Positions 35,303 through 59,135 of a stretch of DNA of 64,000 bases are shown here, piece by piece. The notes below the pieces were generated by a model. The model searched no databases. It worked only from the letters and a program-made list of their open reading frames with translations, and was not told where the DNA came from. The stretch is from Lachnospiraceae bacterium (lineage in GTDB: Bacteria > Bacillota > Clostridia > Lachnospirales > Lachnospiraceae), in assembly GCA_022794265.1 (NCBI GenBank), contig JAAWEK010000010.1, positions 5,049 through 69,048 of the forward strand, given 5' to 3'. Positions within the stretch are counted from its first letter, which is position 1; each line of letters starts with the position of its first letter. The translations under genes and the position numbers were made by a program.

Positions 35303-35318
35303 GTTGCACCGGTGCAAC
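35303..35318. repeat. Palindrome GTTGCACCGGTGCAAC, copy 1 (intergenic, between the capsid stop and the next RBS)
   Basis: An exact 16-bp perfect palindrome. Local context is aaAGTTGCACCGGTGCAACAGgagg. Confidence 0.95.
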
Positions 35319-35329
35319 AGGAGGCAGCA

Positions 35330-35752
35330 ATGGGATATACAACGTATGAGTTTTACAAAGAGGAATATCATGGAAAAACCATAGATGAAAGCGTATTTTG
35401 TGAATGGGAAAGCAGGGCAAAGCGTAAGGTAGATTATTTTACATTTAACCGCATAACCAAAGAAAGATTATCGGATGAAAGATTAAATGAAAGGGTACAG
35501 CTTGCTACCTGTGCAGTTGCGGATTTGTTATTTAAAATTAATGAAGCAGAGCAGAGACAGGGAATCACGGAAACCGGAGAAGGGAAAATTATTAAATCCA
35601 GGTCTGCCGGCTCCGAGAGCATTACATATGATACCGGAAATGACATCTATACAAAGGTCCTGACTGATACAGCAGCACAAAAGAAGTTGACACGGGACAT
35701 ATTAGCGGAACATCTGGGTGATACCGGTCTGATGTATTGTGGGGTGAGTTGA
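35330..35752 (+). CDS. Head-tail connector/adaptor protein
   Basis: Called from position and size. ATG 35330 follows AGGAGG. Confidence 0.6.
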   Translation: MGYTTYEFYKEEYHGKTIDESVFCEWESRAKRKVDYFTFNRITKERLSDERLNERVQLATCAVADLLFKINEAEQRQGITETGEGKIIKSRSAGSESITYDTGNDIYTKVLTDTAAQKKLTRDILAEHLGDTGLMYCGVS

Positions 35753-36192
35753 TGTTTAATGATACGGTTACAGTATTTAACTTTCAGGAGGATAAAACCA
35801 AAGGAACCAGAATATGGCACTCTACGGTTTTAACCGGTGTAGAAGTACAGATTAACAAAGGCTCCAACATACGGACCAGCGGTTTGGAGAGTGCGGATAG
35901 CGTATCTCTCCATATTCCGCTGACAAAGGCAAATAAAGAGTGTTATGCAGACGGAATACAATATTTGAAGCAGAAAGCCTGGTTTGCATTAGAAGATAAA
36001 ACAGGAGCATTTACGTTAAATCCGGCAAAAGATTTTTTTGTTCTGGGAGATTACGGAACAAAAGAATTCCGGGACGATGATTATAACCATGGGTTATTGG
36101 AATATATGAACACGAAGTATGATGATGTTTATAAAATTACAACTGTAGACGTATATAAGACGATACCACACATTGAGGCAGGTGGGAAATAA
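35752..36192 (+). CDS. Head-tail joining / minor capsid protein
   Basis: Its ATG overlaps the upstream stop (TGATG). The call rests on position in the connector block. Confidence 0.55.
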   Translation: MFNDTVTVFNFQEDKTKGTRIWHSTVLTGVEVQINKGSNIRTSGLESADSVSLHIPLTKANKECYADGIQYLKQKAWFALEDKTGAFTLNPAKDFFVLGDYGTKEFRDDDYNHGLLEYMNTKYDDVYKITTVDVYKTIPHIEAGGK

Positions 36193-55770: not shown

Positions 55771-57821
55771 AAAAGGAAAAAATAAAGAAGATTGCTCCGG
55801 TTCCGGCAGGGGAAGAACCGACAGACCGTCCATACCGGGCAACATCAGCCATTGTGGAAATTGATAGCCAGGAACATCTGATAATAGATGTCTATCCGAC
55901 CAGACAGCCGGAAGAACTGCTTATCCGGATGGTATTAAATGAAAACGAGTATCAGAATTACCGGCTGAAAAATAATACATGGGACAGAAAAAAGCTGGAG
56001 GGATGGAAGATACCAGGGCAGACAGAATTAATCAGAAGAGGAAGCCTGTTTTTTAGTAAAAAGGATACGGAAAGAATAAGGGCATTCACAAAGGAGGCTC
56101 CGGAATACTGTACAGAAACGGCATGGGACCGGATTCGGAATTATCGGGAATGGACGGACCGGAAACAAAAAGAAAGAAGAAGGATAAAAAAAGAACAGGA
56201 ATTAAATACAAGAATCCTGGAAACACCGGAGCTTCCGGAAGAGCTGGAACCATGGGTCAGAAAAAAGCTTTCCCATTATCTGTTTTATAAGCGGAGAGGA
56301 AACCGGGCGGACATACAGTGTTCCGCCTGCGGAAGCTGTTACACCATACGGACCAGAGAGACTACCGGCTCCCTGGAAGAAGCCATGGCGGAATCGTGGG
56401 GCAGGGTGCCAAAACATAACCAGTATGGGCACTGTAAATTCTGCGGAAGCACCGGAATTTTCAAAGCAGAAGGGAAACAGCCTTATATAAGGGACGTAAG
56501 GAACATATATCTGGCACAAAAATATACAGAAGGCGGCCGGAGCGGAATCGTAGTCCGGTATGTAAACTGTTATCAGACGGCATACAAAGACCATGAAACC
56601 CTGGAACTTGTGGAACTGGAGCGGGCCTATTTTATAAAAGGAGCCAGACAGGTACAAATCGATTATCAGAAACACTCCAGCTGGGACGGAAGAGATTTCT
56701 GGGATTATAAAAACCTGGAAGGTTTAAATAACATAACGAGGGAAAAGGGTCTGTATTATGACAGCAGAAAGGAATTAGCAGGAACAGAGTTTGAATATAC
56801 GGGTATCCAGGAATATATACAAAAGCAAGGAAAGGTTGACCTGATGGACTATTTTATGGGGTACCGGAGGATTCCGGAACTGGAGATGGTGGTAAAAATG
56901 AAACTCTGGGAGCTGGCAGAGCGGATTATAAATACCAGAGGGAATCCGGGGAATGAACTGGATTGGGAAGCAGAAACACCATGGGAAAAATTAAAGATAA
57001 GGAAAACGGATCTGCCATACCTGATAAAAGAGGAAGGAAATATGAAGATGCTGGAAATCCTTCAGCTTGAAAAAGAATACAATTATAAATTATCAGAAGG
57101 ACAAAGAGAAGTATTACGAATGACTGGTTTCCAGAAATATAAGATGCGGCGGATTCTCCCCTATATGTCCATGACTAAATTTTTAAACCGGACACAGAAG
57201 TATGCCGGAACTGATATGGAAGCCATGATACAGGAAAAAACGGTGTGTATAGCTGCAGAAAGAAACCTGGCAGCAGTGGCCGGCCGGTACACAGATTATT
57301 TAATTATGCGCCTGGACCTGGGATACGACCTTTACAATACAGTATTCCAGTATCCGAGAAATTTAACGGAGGAGCATCAGAAGATGGTCCTGGAGCAGAA
57401 CGAAAAGGAAAATCAAAAGAGAATCCGGGAGATGCAGGAAAAATTTCCGGCAATTGAAAAGAACTATAAAAAATACTGGAAGAAATACCGGTATGAGAAG
57501 GAGAATCTCATCATCCGGCCGGCAAAAAATGCAGGGGAAATCATACGGGAAGGGAAGACGCTCCATCACTGTGTAGGAAATGAATCATACATAAAAAACC
57601 ACAACGACGGCAGAAGCCTGATTCTCTTCCTCAGAAAGAAAGAACAGCCGGAATGTCCATATGTAACAATAGAATTAAACACGGAATCCGGGAAAATACA
57701 GCAATGGTACGGGGCCAATGACAGGAAGCCGGAAGAAGAATATTTAACAGCCGTACTTACGCAATATGAGGACCATCTGGCAGGGAAGCAGACAGAAGTT
57801 CCGGCAGTGGCAGCAGGATAA
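55767..57821 (+). CDS. PcfJ-like protein (N-terminal zinc ribbons)
   Basis: The C-terminal EGKTLHHCVGNESYIKNHNDGRSLILFLRKKEQPECPYVTIELN...IQQWYGANDRKP matches the PcfJ signature as I recall it. Confidence 0.6.
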   Translation: MKKEKIKKIAPVPAGEEPTDRPYRATSAIVEIDSQEHLIIDVYPTRQPEELLIRMVLNENEYQNYRLKNNTWDRKKLEGWKIPGQTELIRRGSLFFSKKDTERIRAFTKEAPEYCTETAWDRIRNYREWTDRKQKERRRIKKEQELNTRILETPELPEELEPWVRKKLSHYLFYKRRGNRADIQCSACGSCYTIRTRETTGSLEEAMAESWGRVPKHNQYGHCKFCGSTGIFKAEGKQPYIRDVRNIYLAQKYTEGGRSGIVVRYVNCYQTAYKDHETLELVELERAYFIKGARQVQIDYQKHSSWDGRDFWDYKNLEGLNNITREKGLYYDSRKELAGTEFEYTGIQEYIQKQGKVDLMDYFMGYRRIPELEMVVKMKLWELAERIINTRGNPGNELDWEAETPWEKLKIRKTDLPYLIKEEGNMKMLEILQLEKEYNYKLSEGQREVLRMTGFQKYKMRRILPYMSMTKFLNRTQKYAGTDMEAMIQEKTVCIAAERNLAAVAGRYTDYLIMRLDLGYDLYNTVFQYPRNLTEEHQKMVLEQNEKENQKRIREMQEKFPAIEKNYKKYWKKYRYEKENLIIRPAKNAGEIIREGKTLHHCVGNESYIKNHNDGRSLILFLRKKEQPECPYVTIELNTESGKIQQWYGANDRKPEEEYLTAVLTQYEDHLAGKQTEVPAVAAG

Positions 57822-57833
57822 AGGAGGAGCCGA

Positions 57834-59135
57834 ATGGAAGAGATAAAAACAGAATACCGGTACAGCGAATTTAAAAATATGCTGGATACAGAATTTAAGG
57901 AAGTGGCATGCGGATTTATAAGGATAGGATACTTACTAAAGATAGCAAGGGATACCGATGTGCTTTCCAAATCCGGATACCACAGCGTTACAGAATTTGC
58001 CCAGGCAGAGTACGGGCTGGGCAAAGATATTGTCAGCCGTTACATAGCAATCAATGACCACTATTCCGAAGGCGGCTATTCGGATAGAATAGCAGAAAAA
58101 TACAAAGGGTACGGTGTGGCAAAACTGGCGGAACTGTTAACACTGCCGGACAGTATCGTTGAGGAGCTCTCTCCGTCCCTGACCAGAAGGGAAATCCAGG
58201 ACTTAAAAACTGAAATCCGGGAGGAGGAGAAAATCAGTGACATTGAGGTTCTGTTGGAAAAGAATCCTCAGAAGGCTCCCACGTTTACATGCCTTACGGA
58301 TGAATTTGTCTATTATTATTTAAAAGGAAAGCCGGAAAGCTTTGAGAAATTAAAGAAAGCAGCAGGGGATTCCCACGATGCCATACTGGGAATCCTGTGT
58401 CCGGCCGGAATCGGATTAATTACAGCAAGAATCCCGGGAAAAGGGAAATATGCCCTGTCCATCAAAGGGACAGAGGAAGACCTGGTGATTATAAATTTAA
58501 GAAGCAGTGAGAAAGACAGGGTGACATGGCAGCAGCTGTCCGATTCCGTTAGTTTTATCGTAAATGACCATGAATATCCGAAAATTTATGAAACGGAAGA
58601 AGTTGCACCGGTGCAACCGGAACACAGGCCGGCAGATGAAAGCAAAGACCAGACAGAAAACGGGGAATCCGGCACATTTTATCCGGAACCGGTCCAGATG
58701 GTGAGTATCTGTTACAGCTGTCTGCATAACACAGAGTGCGGAAGAAAGACCACCATAACAACTGAGTGTAATGAATATGTCAATAAAGCAGAAGCGGAAA
58801 AAACAGAAGAACAGAGATATTCCGAGCAGCAGGAAGAAGAGAAAATCATGAACCATCTGCCGGGAGAGGAACCCTTAAAGAAGATCCATCAGGTACGGTT
58901 GGGAAGTGAATTTTTTGATGATGTGGCAGAAGAAAGAAAACGGTTTGAACTGCGGAAAAATGACAGGGATTATAAAACCGGGGACTGGCTGGAACTGCTG
59001 GAATTTAAGGAAGGGAAGCATACCGGCCGGATGGTACGGGCAGAGATAACATATATGCTGGAAGACTTTACCGGTCTGGAAGAAGGATACTGTATTTTGG
59101 GAATTCGGATAGAAAAGGGAAAGGATTTCACATGA
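57834..59135 (+). CDS. Fusion protein: N-terminal HTH (ParB/DUF3102-like) + C-terminal ASCH/DUF3850 domain
   Basis: The HTH-like region is SVTEFAQAEYGLGKDIVSRYIAIND...KLAELLTLPD. The C-terminus FELRKNDRDYKTGDWLELLEF...GRMVRAEITYM...GYCILGI is typical of DUF3850. Confidence 0.6.
   Translation: MEEIKTEYRYSEFKNMLDTEFKEVACGFIRIGYLLKIARDTDVLSKSGYHSVTEFAQAEYGLGKDIVSRYIAINDHYSEGGYSDRIAEKYKGYGVAKLAELLTLPDSIVEELSPSLTRREIQDLKTEIREEEKISDIEVLLEKNPQKAPTFTCLTDEFVYYYLKGKPESFEKLKKAAGDSHDAILGILCPAGIGLITARIPGKGKYALSIKGTEEDLVIINLRSSEKDRVTWQQLSDSVSFIVNDHEYPKIYETEEVAPVQPEHRPADESKDQTENGESGTFYPEPVQMVSICYSCLHNTECGRKTTITTECNEYVNKAEAEKTEEQRYSEQQEEEKIMNHLPGEEPLKKIHQVRLGSEFFDDVAEERKRFELRKNDRDYKTGDWLELLEFKEGKHTGRMVRAEITYMLEDFTGLEEGYCILGIRIEKGKDFT
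58602..58617. repeat. Palindrome GTTGCACCGGTGCAAC, copy 4 (inside the HTH-ASCH gene)
   Basis: Exact copy, translated here as V-A-P-V-Q, a different frame from copy 2. Confidence 0.95.

Follow-up and report, generated by a model that had tools for sequence, protein, structure and literature searches.

What could preserve a 16-base palindrome, letter for letter, at four dispersed places in a single prophage? In the window (the whole 64,000-nt stretch of DNA that was analysed), GTTGCACCGGTGCAAC occurs in four exact copies, all of them within the prophage, where 0 are expected. Dinucleotide-preserving shuffles of the window (n=100) contained zero copies, and allowing up to three mismatches added only one further match, which lies in host DNA at 12354 and differs at three positions. 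The original prediction of exact, prophage-only copies therefore stands, with one correction to its coordinates: since an A occupies position -1 of all four copies, the exact 17-mer begins one base earlier than had been proposed. We found no published description of the palindrome.

Table 1 Copies of the palindrome in the window, with the associated genes and protein domains.
Feature	Position	Strand	Description
Site 1	35303..35318	.	Intergenic: coat-protein stop 35294-35296, then the site, then AGGAGG RBS and ATG 35330 of the next head gene
Site 2	46497..46512	.	Inside endolysin gene 46037-46975, inter-domain linker
Rep gene	53430..54153	+	Rolling-circle-type (HUH, REP_ORF2-G2P), frameshift near 53960
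Site 3	54156..54171	.	Non-coding, 2 nt past true rep stop 54151-54153
PcfJ-like gene, 684 aa	55767..57821	+	Obligate upstream neighbour of reader gene; alternative or co-reader candidate
Candidate reader gene, 433 aa	57834..59135	+	N-terminal domain, disordered linker, C-terminal DUF3850/ASCH
Conserved N-terminal domain	aa 1-255		No known family; HTH-like helix pair at 52-77
Disordered linker	aa 256-347		Includes Cys-rich segment
C-terminal DUF3850/ASCH domain	aa 351-424		
Site 4 ('master' copy)	58602..58617	.	In frame E-VAPVQ-P, disordered-linker coding part of gene 57834-59135

Sites 1 and 3 are the two intergenic copies and have the stretch AAAGTTGCACCGGTGCAACAG in common, as had been noticed, and sites 2 and 4 lie within unrelated genes in different frames, encoding S-C-T-G-A-T in the endolysin and E-V-A-P-V-Q-P in gene 57834-59135. 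The placement of site 1 between the capsid stop and the next RBS is correct, and 33 independent contexts, viral or prophage, show the same order of stop, site and RBS. Site 3 does follow the restored rep stop, at 2 nt rather than the 3 nt first counted, and opens a gap of ~165 nt that precedes the next ORF; the restoration itself is real, as the rep gene, a member of the same conserved early module as the reader gene, is genuinely frameshifted. Other copies occupy the gap from a stop codon to the RBS that follows, or fall in inter-domain linkers of unrelated genes, and one frame is common to 104 of 150 coding copies. Site 2 departs from this usual V-A-P-V-Q frame; in related phages, endolysin linkers carrying the motif connect differing catalytic domains with one shared binding domain.

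The 16-base palindrome is kept letter for letter in hundreds of related phages of Lachnospiraceae gut bacteria, with GTTGYRCCGGYRCAAC as the lineage-wide consensus. A scan of 185,579 genomes (596 Gb) matched at least 119 stretches. Among the matches listed, the majority were from Lachnospiraceae, 84 of the 98 low-GC matches had phage-like ORFs within 3 kb, and those in other phyla were singletons, which fit chance, since by our own arithmetic ~139 random matches are expected in 596 Gb. In IMG/VR, the motif was present in more than 120 stretches, against 7 for a control palindrome matched to it in base composition, and the 64-kb phage scaffold MT835488 carries four exact copies, each within its phage part. 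Together with the protein-selected loci described below, these searches show that the motif is specific to phages and retained in homologous ones, as predicted, rather than a generic host repeat; among bacterial genomes, it is almost confined to Lachnospiraceae prophages.

Selection acts at the DNA level. Wherever the VAPVQ peptide is encoded, GTT, GCA and CAA are used (48 of 48 peptides); elsewhere in the same genes, CAA supplies 13% of Q and GTT 18% of V. The exact 15 nt of the palindrome are present in 65% of the 48 peptides, compared with 0.2% expected from codon usage, and in the homologue P0072 the DNA is retained in another reading frame, as G-S-C-T-G-A-T. This codon test, the frame-shifted retention and the non-coding copies agree with the earlier proposal that the nucleic acid rather than the protein is under selection.

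The motif is tied to one gene. In 80 viral loci picked solely by a homologue of gene 57834-59135 (1.33 Mb in total), we counted 153 sites; the first kilobase of this gene holds a site in 86% of loci, with 0.0-0.2 sites per kb in other places. The copy falls in the gene's own disordered-linker coding region in 68 of 79 homologues picked by protein alone, formally like parS inside parB, as had been suggested. The core TTGCGCCGGCGCAA was also found in the linker of 10 of 20 PcfJ-selected loci that first looked site-free, and many relatives have the in-gene copy only, within the 16-20 kb examined. Homologues with other C-termini still have the motif, indicating that it tracks the N-terminal domain and not ASCH. 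Because a copy lies nearly always within the coding sequence of this one conserved early gene, it is most likely that protein's docking site. Our leading explanation, held tentatively, is that the palindrome is a double-stranded DNA recognition site for the product of gene 57834-59135 or its obligate PcfJ-like partner, with the master copy in the reader's own gene. The PcfJ-like gene accompanies the reader homologue in 79 of the 80 protein-selected loci, and the N-domain gene lies directly downstream of PcfJ in 79 of 80 PcfJ-selected loci, so that co-occurrence cannot separate the two, and rep is usually there too; this counts against our reading, as does a distant, phiCs5676-1-like subgroup in which the gene pair is present and the motif absent.

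The same loci bear on whether the neighbouring HUH Rep might use the palindrome as its nick site or double-strand origin. Hairpin loops are frequent nicking targets of HUH proteins, and the window copy just past the rep stop would suit this role, but a site lies between rep and the reader gene in just 20 of 57 relatives, at distances varying from 91 to 651 nt from the rep stop, and the constant copy is 4.4 kb from rep, in another gene. Four identical nick or termination sites would, moreover, be expected to cut the rolling circle into sub-genomic pieces, and we consider this alternative highly improbable.

Variation within the palindrome points to a reader of bases. The outer GTTG/CCGG/CAAC positions are near-invariant, and symmetric variants, GTTGTACCGGTACAAC and GTTGCGCCGGCGCAAC, separate by phage: the 38 further sites in loci chosen for allele a include none of type c, and the further sites of loci selected for allele c are four c and one a. 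These patterns would favour a sequence-specific reader over mere structure. Both alleles preserve RCCGGY and CRCCGGYG, as would suit a DNA modification or restriction target with such a core; PUA-like/ASCH domains can read modified bases, and some relatives encode methyltransferases. Restriction targets are, however, normally avoided, not conserved, 16 fixed bases are longer than any such site, and no methyltransferase was found among the prophage ORFs of the window that were scanned (the unscanned early-region ORFs are all <100 aa). Host DNA outside prophages is also practically free of the motif, which makes a host regulon unlikely; a modification target or host transcription-factor operator is thus a very improbable reading.

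Half-site hybrids are common and run either way round: on the sense strand, 25 carry a C.A mismatch and 18 a G.U pair. The commonest hybrid takes the RNA hairpin from -5.2 to -0.8 kcal/mol. Hybrids in both orientations and a nearly abolished hairpin favour binding to duplex DNA over a single-strand or RNA element, in which a 6-bp stem capped by a CCGG loop, with A ahead of it on the sense strand, would act in mRNA as a 5' stabiliser, processing signal or RBS insulator, or in DNA as a priming signal on the strand displaced during rolling-circle replication. Such an element would account for flanks that follow the sense strand: 31 of the 33 intergenic sites have A at position -1, with T at +17 merely at background level, an asymmetry that a symmetric dimer does not predict and that counts against our preferred reading. 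Intergenic copies abut the Shine-Dalgarno, at least 16 copies have a terminator-like hairpin on one side and an RBS on the other, the module encodes the HUH Rep, an RNase H-like protein and, in relatives, SSB, and the usual annotation of ASCH domains is RNA-binding. Yet the hairpin is weak, falls outside the minimum-energy fold in three of four native contexts with z-scores that are not significant, and is frequently disrupted by the common variant GTTGCACCGGTACAAC (25 sense-strand cases, including about 20 in-gene sites); changes show no bias to G.U-compatible ones, and Rfam gave no match for the palindrome. A hairpin alone also fails to explain letter-perfect conservation, the flanks being saturated with change across phages, and we therefore judge this element to be quite unlikely.

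A further alternative starts from where the sites lie, at gene boundaries and domain linkers: the shared 16-mer might promote in-frame module swaps between co-infecting phages, as the frame shared by most coding copies would allow. Two endolysins with unrelated catalytic domains are about 95% identical from 16 nt upstream of the motif onward, and C-terminal domains of the reader family are swapped past the site. The boundary sequences or PeSL cassettes of mosaic phages (lambdoid, T4-type) are comparable short conserved sequences repeated at gene or module boundaries; they contain promoters or stem-loops and are presumed to bring about shuffling. However, the ends of high-identity segments are 3.7-fold enriched within 10 bp of the sites and 4.4-fold at gene boundaries generally, implying no special recombination signal, and the near-obligatory copy in one particular gene is left unexplained, so that a recombination junction appears improbable. 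RNA hairpin, Rep nick site, restriction or methylation target and special recombination hot spot are thus all disfavoured.

If a protein reads the duplex, the N-terminal domain of the 57834-59135 product is the strongest candidate. It has a confident predicted fold (pLDDT about 90), and its helix pair, with invariant residues S68, R69, I73 and N74, may form an HTH, judging from the predicted helices. We obtained zero Pfam, NCBIfam or PDB sequence matches for this domain, no fold match in the PDB with Foldseek (best E 0.43) and no alignment to the ParB part of a genuine ParB-DUF3850 protein, and the ParB/KorB-like HTH originally assigned to this gene is therefore not supported. Nor are the a and c alleles matched by changes in the putative recognition helix, those of L322 (c) and L308 (a) being nearly alike. 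The lack of a recognisable relative of known function and the unchanging helix both tell against our reading. The C-terminal half is homologous to a ParB_N-DUF3850 protein of phage Saumur (hhalign probability 99.9%, 45% identity), whose gene adjoins ParA, so that the N-terminal domain takes the place of a known DNA-site-binding module. Phage ParB-CTPase-DUF3850 fusions of this kind have been surveyed (bioRxiv 10.1101/2025.10.10.680097). Fusions and reader family are both prophage-enriched and have homologous Cys-rich, EKTEEQ-Y and DUF3850/ASCH segments, but an unrelated domain replaces the ParB module in the reader, its neighbour is PcfJ-like and not ParA, and the motif, or any repeated palindrome, is absent from the 34.5 kb of Saumur examined.

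The likeness to parS/ParB (Spo0J) is correspondingly partial. Both systems have a 16-bp perfect palindrome in few dispersed copies, some within coding sequences and one in the gene of the presumed binding protein, and the prophage half-site GTTGCAC resembles the parS half-site GTTNCAC. The prophage palindrome, however, has two extra central bases, its candidate reader is without a ParB_N/CTPase domain or ParB-type HTH (Pfam, PDB sequence search, Foldseek, hhalign), and the element resides in an integrated prophage in which no ParA was found among the ORFs scanned, which is atypical for a centromere and tells against our reading. KorB operators (OB) of the IncP plasmid RK2 offer another parallel, with about a dozen scattered copies of one palindrome (~1 per 5 kb), some at promoters and others far off. 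KorB, however, belongs to the ParB family and is partnered by KorA and IncC, whereas many of the present phages have the in-gene copy only, and the early/lysogeny switch region holds no copy.

In the reading that we prefer, the palindrome would be a cis-acting site on double-stranded phage DNA, bound by a phage-encoded, probably dimeric, sequence-specific protein, likeliest through the N-terminal domain of the 57834-59135 product, possibly with its inseparable PcfJ-like neighbour. A master copy embedded where the reader's own gene encodes the linker could not be parted from the reader by recombination in these highly mosaic phages. The 0-4 secondary copies would then lie wherever the genome tolerates 16 fixed bases, in stop-RBS gaps and, mostly in the benign V-A-P-V-Q frame, in flexible inter-domain linkers. 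By analogy, bound protein may single out phage DNA for a transaction of the replication or segregation type, perhaps as an origin-like or a centromere- or loader-like landing site; the effector would be the variable C-terminal domain (here the Cys-rich segment and ASCH).

A more specific version of this explanation makes the reader an origin-binding replisome organiser of the lambda O or SPP1 G38P type, with the secondary copies as auxiliary origins. The lambda ori lies inside O and SPP1 oriL inside gene 38, in each case in the flexible-linker coding part of the binder's gene, between a conserved N-terminal and an exchangeable C-terminal domain, and SPP1 has a second site (oriR) far away. We regard this version as unlikely: lambda and SPP1 origins have iteron arrays and an AT-rich region, whereas a lone 16-bp palindrome with neither iterons nor an obvious AT-rich unwinding element would be an atypical origin, which also weighs against the broader reading. 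A separate HUH Rep initiator is already encoded, no helicase or loader gene was recognised beside the reader gene, the reader has no homology to O or G38P, and the late-gene copies are hard to account for as origins. In its favour, the master site lies exactly at the linker between the conserved and variable domains, the in-gene copy is the only one in many relatives, and the reader gene sits within the replication module, flanked by rep/PcfJ-like and SSB; a weak reader homologue also adjoins rep on the inovirus-like pCBU3.

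The window has four exact copies of the palindrome GTTGCACCGGTGCAAC, as originally predicted, and none arose in 100 dinucleotide-preserving shuffles. Allowing up to three mismatches added a single match, in host DNA, and isolated half-sites are not enriched in the prophage. The settings described for the four sites, including the 21-mer common to the two non-coding copies (sites 1 and 3), were all recovered. The proposed exact 17-mer stood in that an A precedes every copy, but its true start lies one base before the coordinates first assigned to it.

Positions of the motif copies, the candidate reader gene and other features in the window and in viral loci (L numbers)
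Sequence	Position	Strand	Feature	Remarks
Window	35303		Site 1	After the stop of the P22-type coat gene, before the next gene's RBS
Window	46497		Site 2	Endolysin linker, reading frame SCTGAT
Window	54156		Site 3	2 nt past the rep stop
Window	58602		Site 4 ('master' copy)	EVAPVQP within the reader gene
Window	12354		3-mismatch sequence	Host DNA
Window	41827-42066		120-nt tandem repeat	Within tape-measure gene; 2 copies, 84% identical
Window	48324-48719	-	HicB-like antitoxin	Lysogeny module
Window	53349-54153		HUH-type rep	Frameshifted near 53960; N-terminal 170 aa and C-terminal 60 aa in different frames
Window	53349-54065		rep ORF	Residues 28-197 (nt 53430-53939) align with residues 1-170 of intact relative
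Window	53968-54153		rep, +1 frame	Aligns with residues 181-240 of intact relative
Window	55767-57821		PcfJ-like gene	Upstream neighbour of reader gene
Window	57834-59135		Reader gene (433 aa)	Candidate binder of the motif
Reader protein	~255 aa		N-terminal domain	Conserved
Reader protein	256-347		Linker	Disordered, AlphaFold pLDDT <50
Reader protein			Cys-rich segment	Between linker and C-terminal domain
Reader protein	C-terminal		DUF3850/ASCH domain	42% identical to PDB 3iuw
Window	59534-59604	-	tRNA-Gly(CCC)	~400 nt downstream of reader gene
Window	61229-62479		Weak HEPN (RiboL-PSP) protein	Low-GC DNA right of phage genes
L134	16149-16988		Endolysin (amidase)	SH3-like C-terminal domain near-identical to that in L147; DNA identity begins 16 nt ahead of the motif
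L147	17816-18556		Endolysin (M15-like peptidase)	See L134
L413 (C. butyricum pCBU3)	3888-4583		Weak N-terminal-domain homologue	29% identity; directly upstream of rep
L467	8725-9045		Triple 153-nt tandem duplication	Reader-gene linker; each unit with c-type core TTGCGCCGGCGCAA
L053	4891		Hairpin, site, RBS	
L099	4729		Hairpin, site, RBS	
L150	1110		Hairpin, site, RBS	
L184	819		Hairpin, site, RBS	
L320	2835		Hairpin, site, RBS	

Beyond the window, the motif proves to be lineage-wide. Scanning IMG/VR for exact matches returned at least 120 stretches carrying it, with 139 copies among the matches listed, while a control palindrome of equal composition (GATGCTCCGGAGCATC) was found in 7 stretches. 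When one bacterial genome per species was scanned, the matches listed came mostly from Lachnospiraceae (Roseburia, Acetatifactor, Lachnospira, Oribacterium and many MAGs), and 84 of the 98 low-GC bacterial matches listed lie in phage context, with ORFs similar to viral loci within 3 kb. Other phyla contributed singletons only, among the matches listed; by our own arithmetic, ~139 matches are expected by chance in 596 Gb. The host DNA of the window (~30 kb) has no copy, and a GenBank phage scaffold (MT835488, 64 kb) has four exact copies, every one in its phage part. With Lachnospiraceae matches in prophage context and singletons elsewhere, the possibility of a generic host repeat, which would have refuted the original prediction, fails; the similar host-chromosome density of a REP/MITE-like genome-wide repeat was likewise not observed. 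Host DNA has essentially no copies of the motif, which also argues against an operator recognised by a host regulator. A literature search turned up no relevant paper that mentions the 16-mer or its 12-mer core, and no convincing counterpart of the palindrome was found in phage Saumur, which encodes a ParB_N-DUF3850 protein, or in the distant relative phiCs5676-1. The motif is a real cis-element, apparently undescribed so far.

To remove selection bias, we fetched 80 viral loci by the candidate reader protein alone, and these 1.33 Mb contain 74 exact and ~95 near copies; counting sites with at least 11 of 12 fixed positions gives 153, or 0.115 per kb. In 68 of 79 reader genes a site falls within the first kilobase, and the number of sites per locus in the remaining 1-kb bins is 0.0-0.2. 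Secondary positions recur, for example, at the portal N-terminus, in endolysin linkers, in a small secreted protein and in the gaps upstream of HNH/terS and integrase genes. The contexts form two classes, with coding copies mostly in low-complexity linkers and non-coding copies in the gap that separates a stop codon from the following Shine-Dalgarno sequence. Coding copies are found most often in the linker of reader-protein homologues 380-500 aa long, and 104 of the 150 coding cases use the frame GTT GCA CCG GTG CAA (V-A-P-V-Q). Such placement could also mark recombination hot spots or junctions of module exchange, and two endolysins with unrelated catalytic domains do turn ~95% identical from 16 nt upstream of the motif. 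We reject this explanation, as the 3.7-fold enrichment of 1,638 breakpoints within 10 bp of sites is comparable to the 4.4-fold enrichment at any gene boundary.

The claim that selection acts on the nucleic acid and not on the protein is upheld by fixed codons and by out-of-frame retention. All 48 VAPVQ occurrences in the unbiased set are spelled with GTT, GCA and CAA, against a background in the same genes of 18% GTT among Val codons and 13% CAA among Gln codons. Four of 512 possible codon combinations are seen, and 65% of the occurrences form the exact palindrome, compared with 0.2% expected by codon usage. Among the best 120 of >3,100 homologues, 74 contain VAPVQ within an otherwise hypervariable linker, the remainder mostly having VVPAQ, VAPAQ, IAPAQ or similar. 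In the homologous protein P0072, IGSCTGATTEE is encoded by the same DNA sequence as TEVAPVQQEEE of a close relative, in a shifted frame, and the endolysin copy in the window likewise reads the motif DNA in another frame.

Positions 2-4, 7 and 13-15 of the consensus GTTGYRCCGGYRCAAC are invariant, while positions 8-10 and 16 are conserved at 93-99%. The motif also has two other perfectly symmetric forms: GTTGTACCGGTACAAC, for example as three related copies in locus L320, and GTTGCGCCGGCGCAAC, for example in locus L322 and in 70 IMG/VR stretches, 57 of which are in low-GC loci with contexts of the same kinds. Of the symmetric alleles a, b and c, a and c segregate between phages: loci selected by a have 38 further sites, none c-type, those selected by c have four further c sites and one a site, and at homologous intergenic positions some phages have a where others have c. 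This segregation points to a sequence-specific reader that would differ, or drift in concert, between phages. Hybrids that join an a and a b half-site are common, with 43 cases covering both orientations. As a restriction or methylation target, the motif would offer the core CRCCGGYG in a and c, and RCCGGY in all three alleles; against this reading stand its 16 fixed bases, conserved rather than avoided, and the failure to find a methyltransferase in the prophage ORFs scanned in the window.

A perfect palindrome could also act as an RNA or single-strand hairpin, which we disfavour. The RNA hairpin reaches only -5.2 kcal/mol and is missing from the minimum-energy fold in three of four native contexts, and its energy falls to -0.8 kcal/mol in a frequent variant, GTTGCACCGGTACAAC, the form that ~20 family members have in the gene itself. 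There is no sense-strand preference for G.U-compatible changes, no Rfam match and no significant fold z-score, and no U-tract on the sense strand that would fit an intrinsic terminator. The weak hairpin, its disruption by the variant, the absence of G.U bias and the lack of an Rfam match favour recognition of the motif as duplex DNA.

The reader protein has more than 3,100 database homologues, many with different C-terminal domains, and at least 483 IMG/VR stretches encode the family. On plasmids the family is essentially absent, the sole match being weak and on an inovirus-like 6-kb element (pCBU3, with a Zot-domain gene and rep). Searches of Pfam, NCBIfam and PHROGs and a PDB profile search with the N-terminal domain returned nothing beyond 'unknown', nor did two AlphaFold models and two Foldseek searches of the PDB give more, the N-terminal model reaching a best E-value of 0.43 with no ParB-family match among those listed. 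The ParB/KorB-like helix-turn-helix originally proposed for this gene therefore finds no counterpart in sequence or fold: PF02195, the ParB N-terminal CTPase with its GERRxR box, is not matched at E-values up to 10, ParB, KorB, Noc and SopB are absent from the reader-family profile search of PDB sequences, and the ParB part of the Saumur protein does not align. The N-terminal domain does contain a helix pair (52-60, 64-77) with invariant S68, R69, I73 and N74. The putative recognition helix shows no clean co-variation with the a and c alleles, as c-type proteins are polyphyletic and some share the helix with a-type proteins, which counts against a simple specificity model.

The motif goes together with a conserved early module that includes the reader gene: SLT, HUH Rep and small genes come first, then the PcfJ-like and N-domain genes, with SSB next in relatives. 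Because the PcfJ-like and N-domain genes occur together in 79 of 80 loci, whichever of them is used for selection, co-occurrence cannot choose between them as readers. Of the 20 PcfJ-selected loci that initially seemed site-free, ten do have the core TTGCGCCGGCGCAA, which encodes IAPAQ in the linker; in one of these (L467) a 153-nt duplication has raised it to three copies. True absence of the motif among PcfJ-selected loci is limited to the distant phiCs5676-1-like subgroup. The PcfJ-like protein has no PDB relative and no Walker A motif. With the master site in its own gene and a helix pair with invariant residues, the N-terminal domain is the better reader candidate. The neighbouring Rep suggests another role, that of a nick site or double-strand origin, against which a site lies between rep and the reader gene in just 20 of 57 relatives, at varying distance. 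A nick site is moreover expected to be unique, but the window has four copies, and several identical nick sites would be expected to fragment a rolling circle.

A 16-bp palindromic site, often in or beside parB, is also a feature of ParABS; the ParA/Walker ATPase partner is replaced here by the PcfJ-like protein as constant neighbour, and the prophage ORFs scanned include no ParA. The system is best filed outside ParABS. The Saumur protein passes PF02195, its gene adjoins ParA, and just its C-terminal half aligns with the reader family (hhalign probability 99.9%). Fusions of the ParB CTPase to DUF3850 are reported, in a 2025 preprint, to be prophage-enriched and consistently paired with ParA (bioRxiv 10.1101/2025.10.10.680097). 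Since the C-terminal halves are homologous, the N-terminal domain holds the place of a known DNA-site-binding module, a position that supports a functional analogy with the ParB module and not family membership. In its formal logic the element follows parS within parB, or lambda ori within O. As in initiator genes of the lambda O or SPP1 G38P type, the site is in the linker-coding region of a gene whose protein would bind it; unlike them, it lacks iterons and an adjacent AT-rich unwinding element, with a single copy per site except for the three copies in L467.

We consider it plausible, though slightly short of an even chance, that the motif is a double-stranded DNA site for the reader protein, with or without the PcfJ-like protein, serving as an origin-like or loader-like landing site. 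One master copy would be protected inside the reader's own gene, and optional secondary copies would be placed wherever coding and translation signals permit. A more far-reaching and rather improbable version is a new two-gene phage system, in which the PcfJ-like protein and a protein whose N-terminal domain matches no solved structure would use a 16-bp 'address' written into coding sequences (the reader's own linker, endolysin linkers, portal N-terminus) and stop-to-RBS gaps. This address would serve as a loader, centromere or origin, independent of ParB and polar relative to the sense strand. Were this version true, many temperate phages of gut Lachnospiraceae, a large group, would have their 'self' DNA marked by a new class of cis-element/reader pair, which would also illustrate in nature how a DNA signal can be kept through protein-coding constraints. 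Confirmation of the reader would extend the ParB-DUF3850 story by a new DNA-binding fold, and the role of the widespread C-terminal module may then emerge. Phages of this kind are abundant in the gut of humans and animals, and the letter-perfect element offers a direct experimental handle on the conserved early module, serves as a clean diagnostic marker for this prophage group and strikingly illustrates how a DNA signal can be overprinted on coding sequence.

One observation sits badly with duplex recognition. In the viral loci L001-L319, the sense strand has A at position -1 in 31 of 33 oriented intergenic sites and in 79 of 104 frame-0 coding sites; T at +17 occurs at background frequency only. 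The A may stem from stop-codon, E/K-codon and Shine-Dalgarno constraints; this asymmetry around a perfect palindrome nevertheless keeps alive a strand-specific role, to which we give low probability. At least 16 distinct contexts have a terminator-like hairpin with a conserved tail, TATTTTTATACCCAA, followed by the site and then the RBS of a gene, in several cases a tyrosine or serine integrase. The sequence TATTTTTATACCC upstream of some sites, considered as a promoter, is better read as the T-run of such hairpins.

The frameshift reported in rep is genuine, as alignment to an intact relative needs two frames, and may represent a pseudogene, a sequencing error or a programmed shift. No att repeats or integrase defining the prophage ends were found in the window, and the gene order between 27500 and 62500 (terS...lysis, lysogeny, replication) is circularly permuted with respect to the relatives L320 and L322 (int-cI-...-rep-...-terS). 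The absent integrase, permuted order and broken rep suggest a defective or unusually integrated prophage. The tRNA-Gly(CCC) gene may be phage-borne, or an integration target marking the right prophage end.
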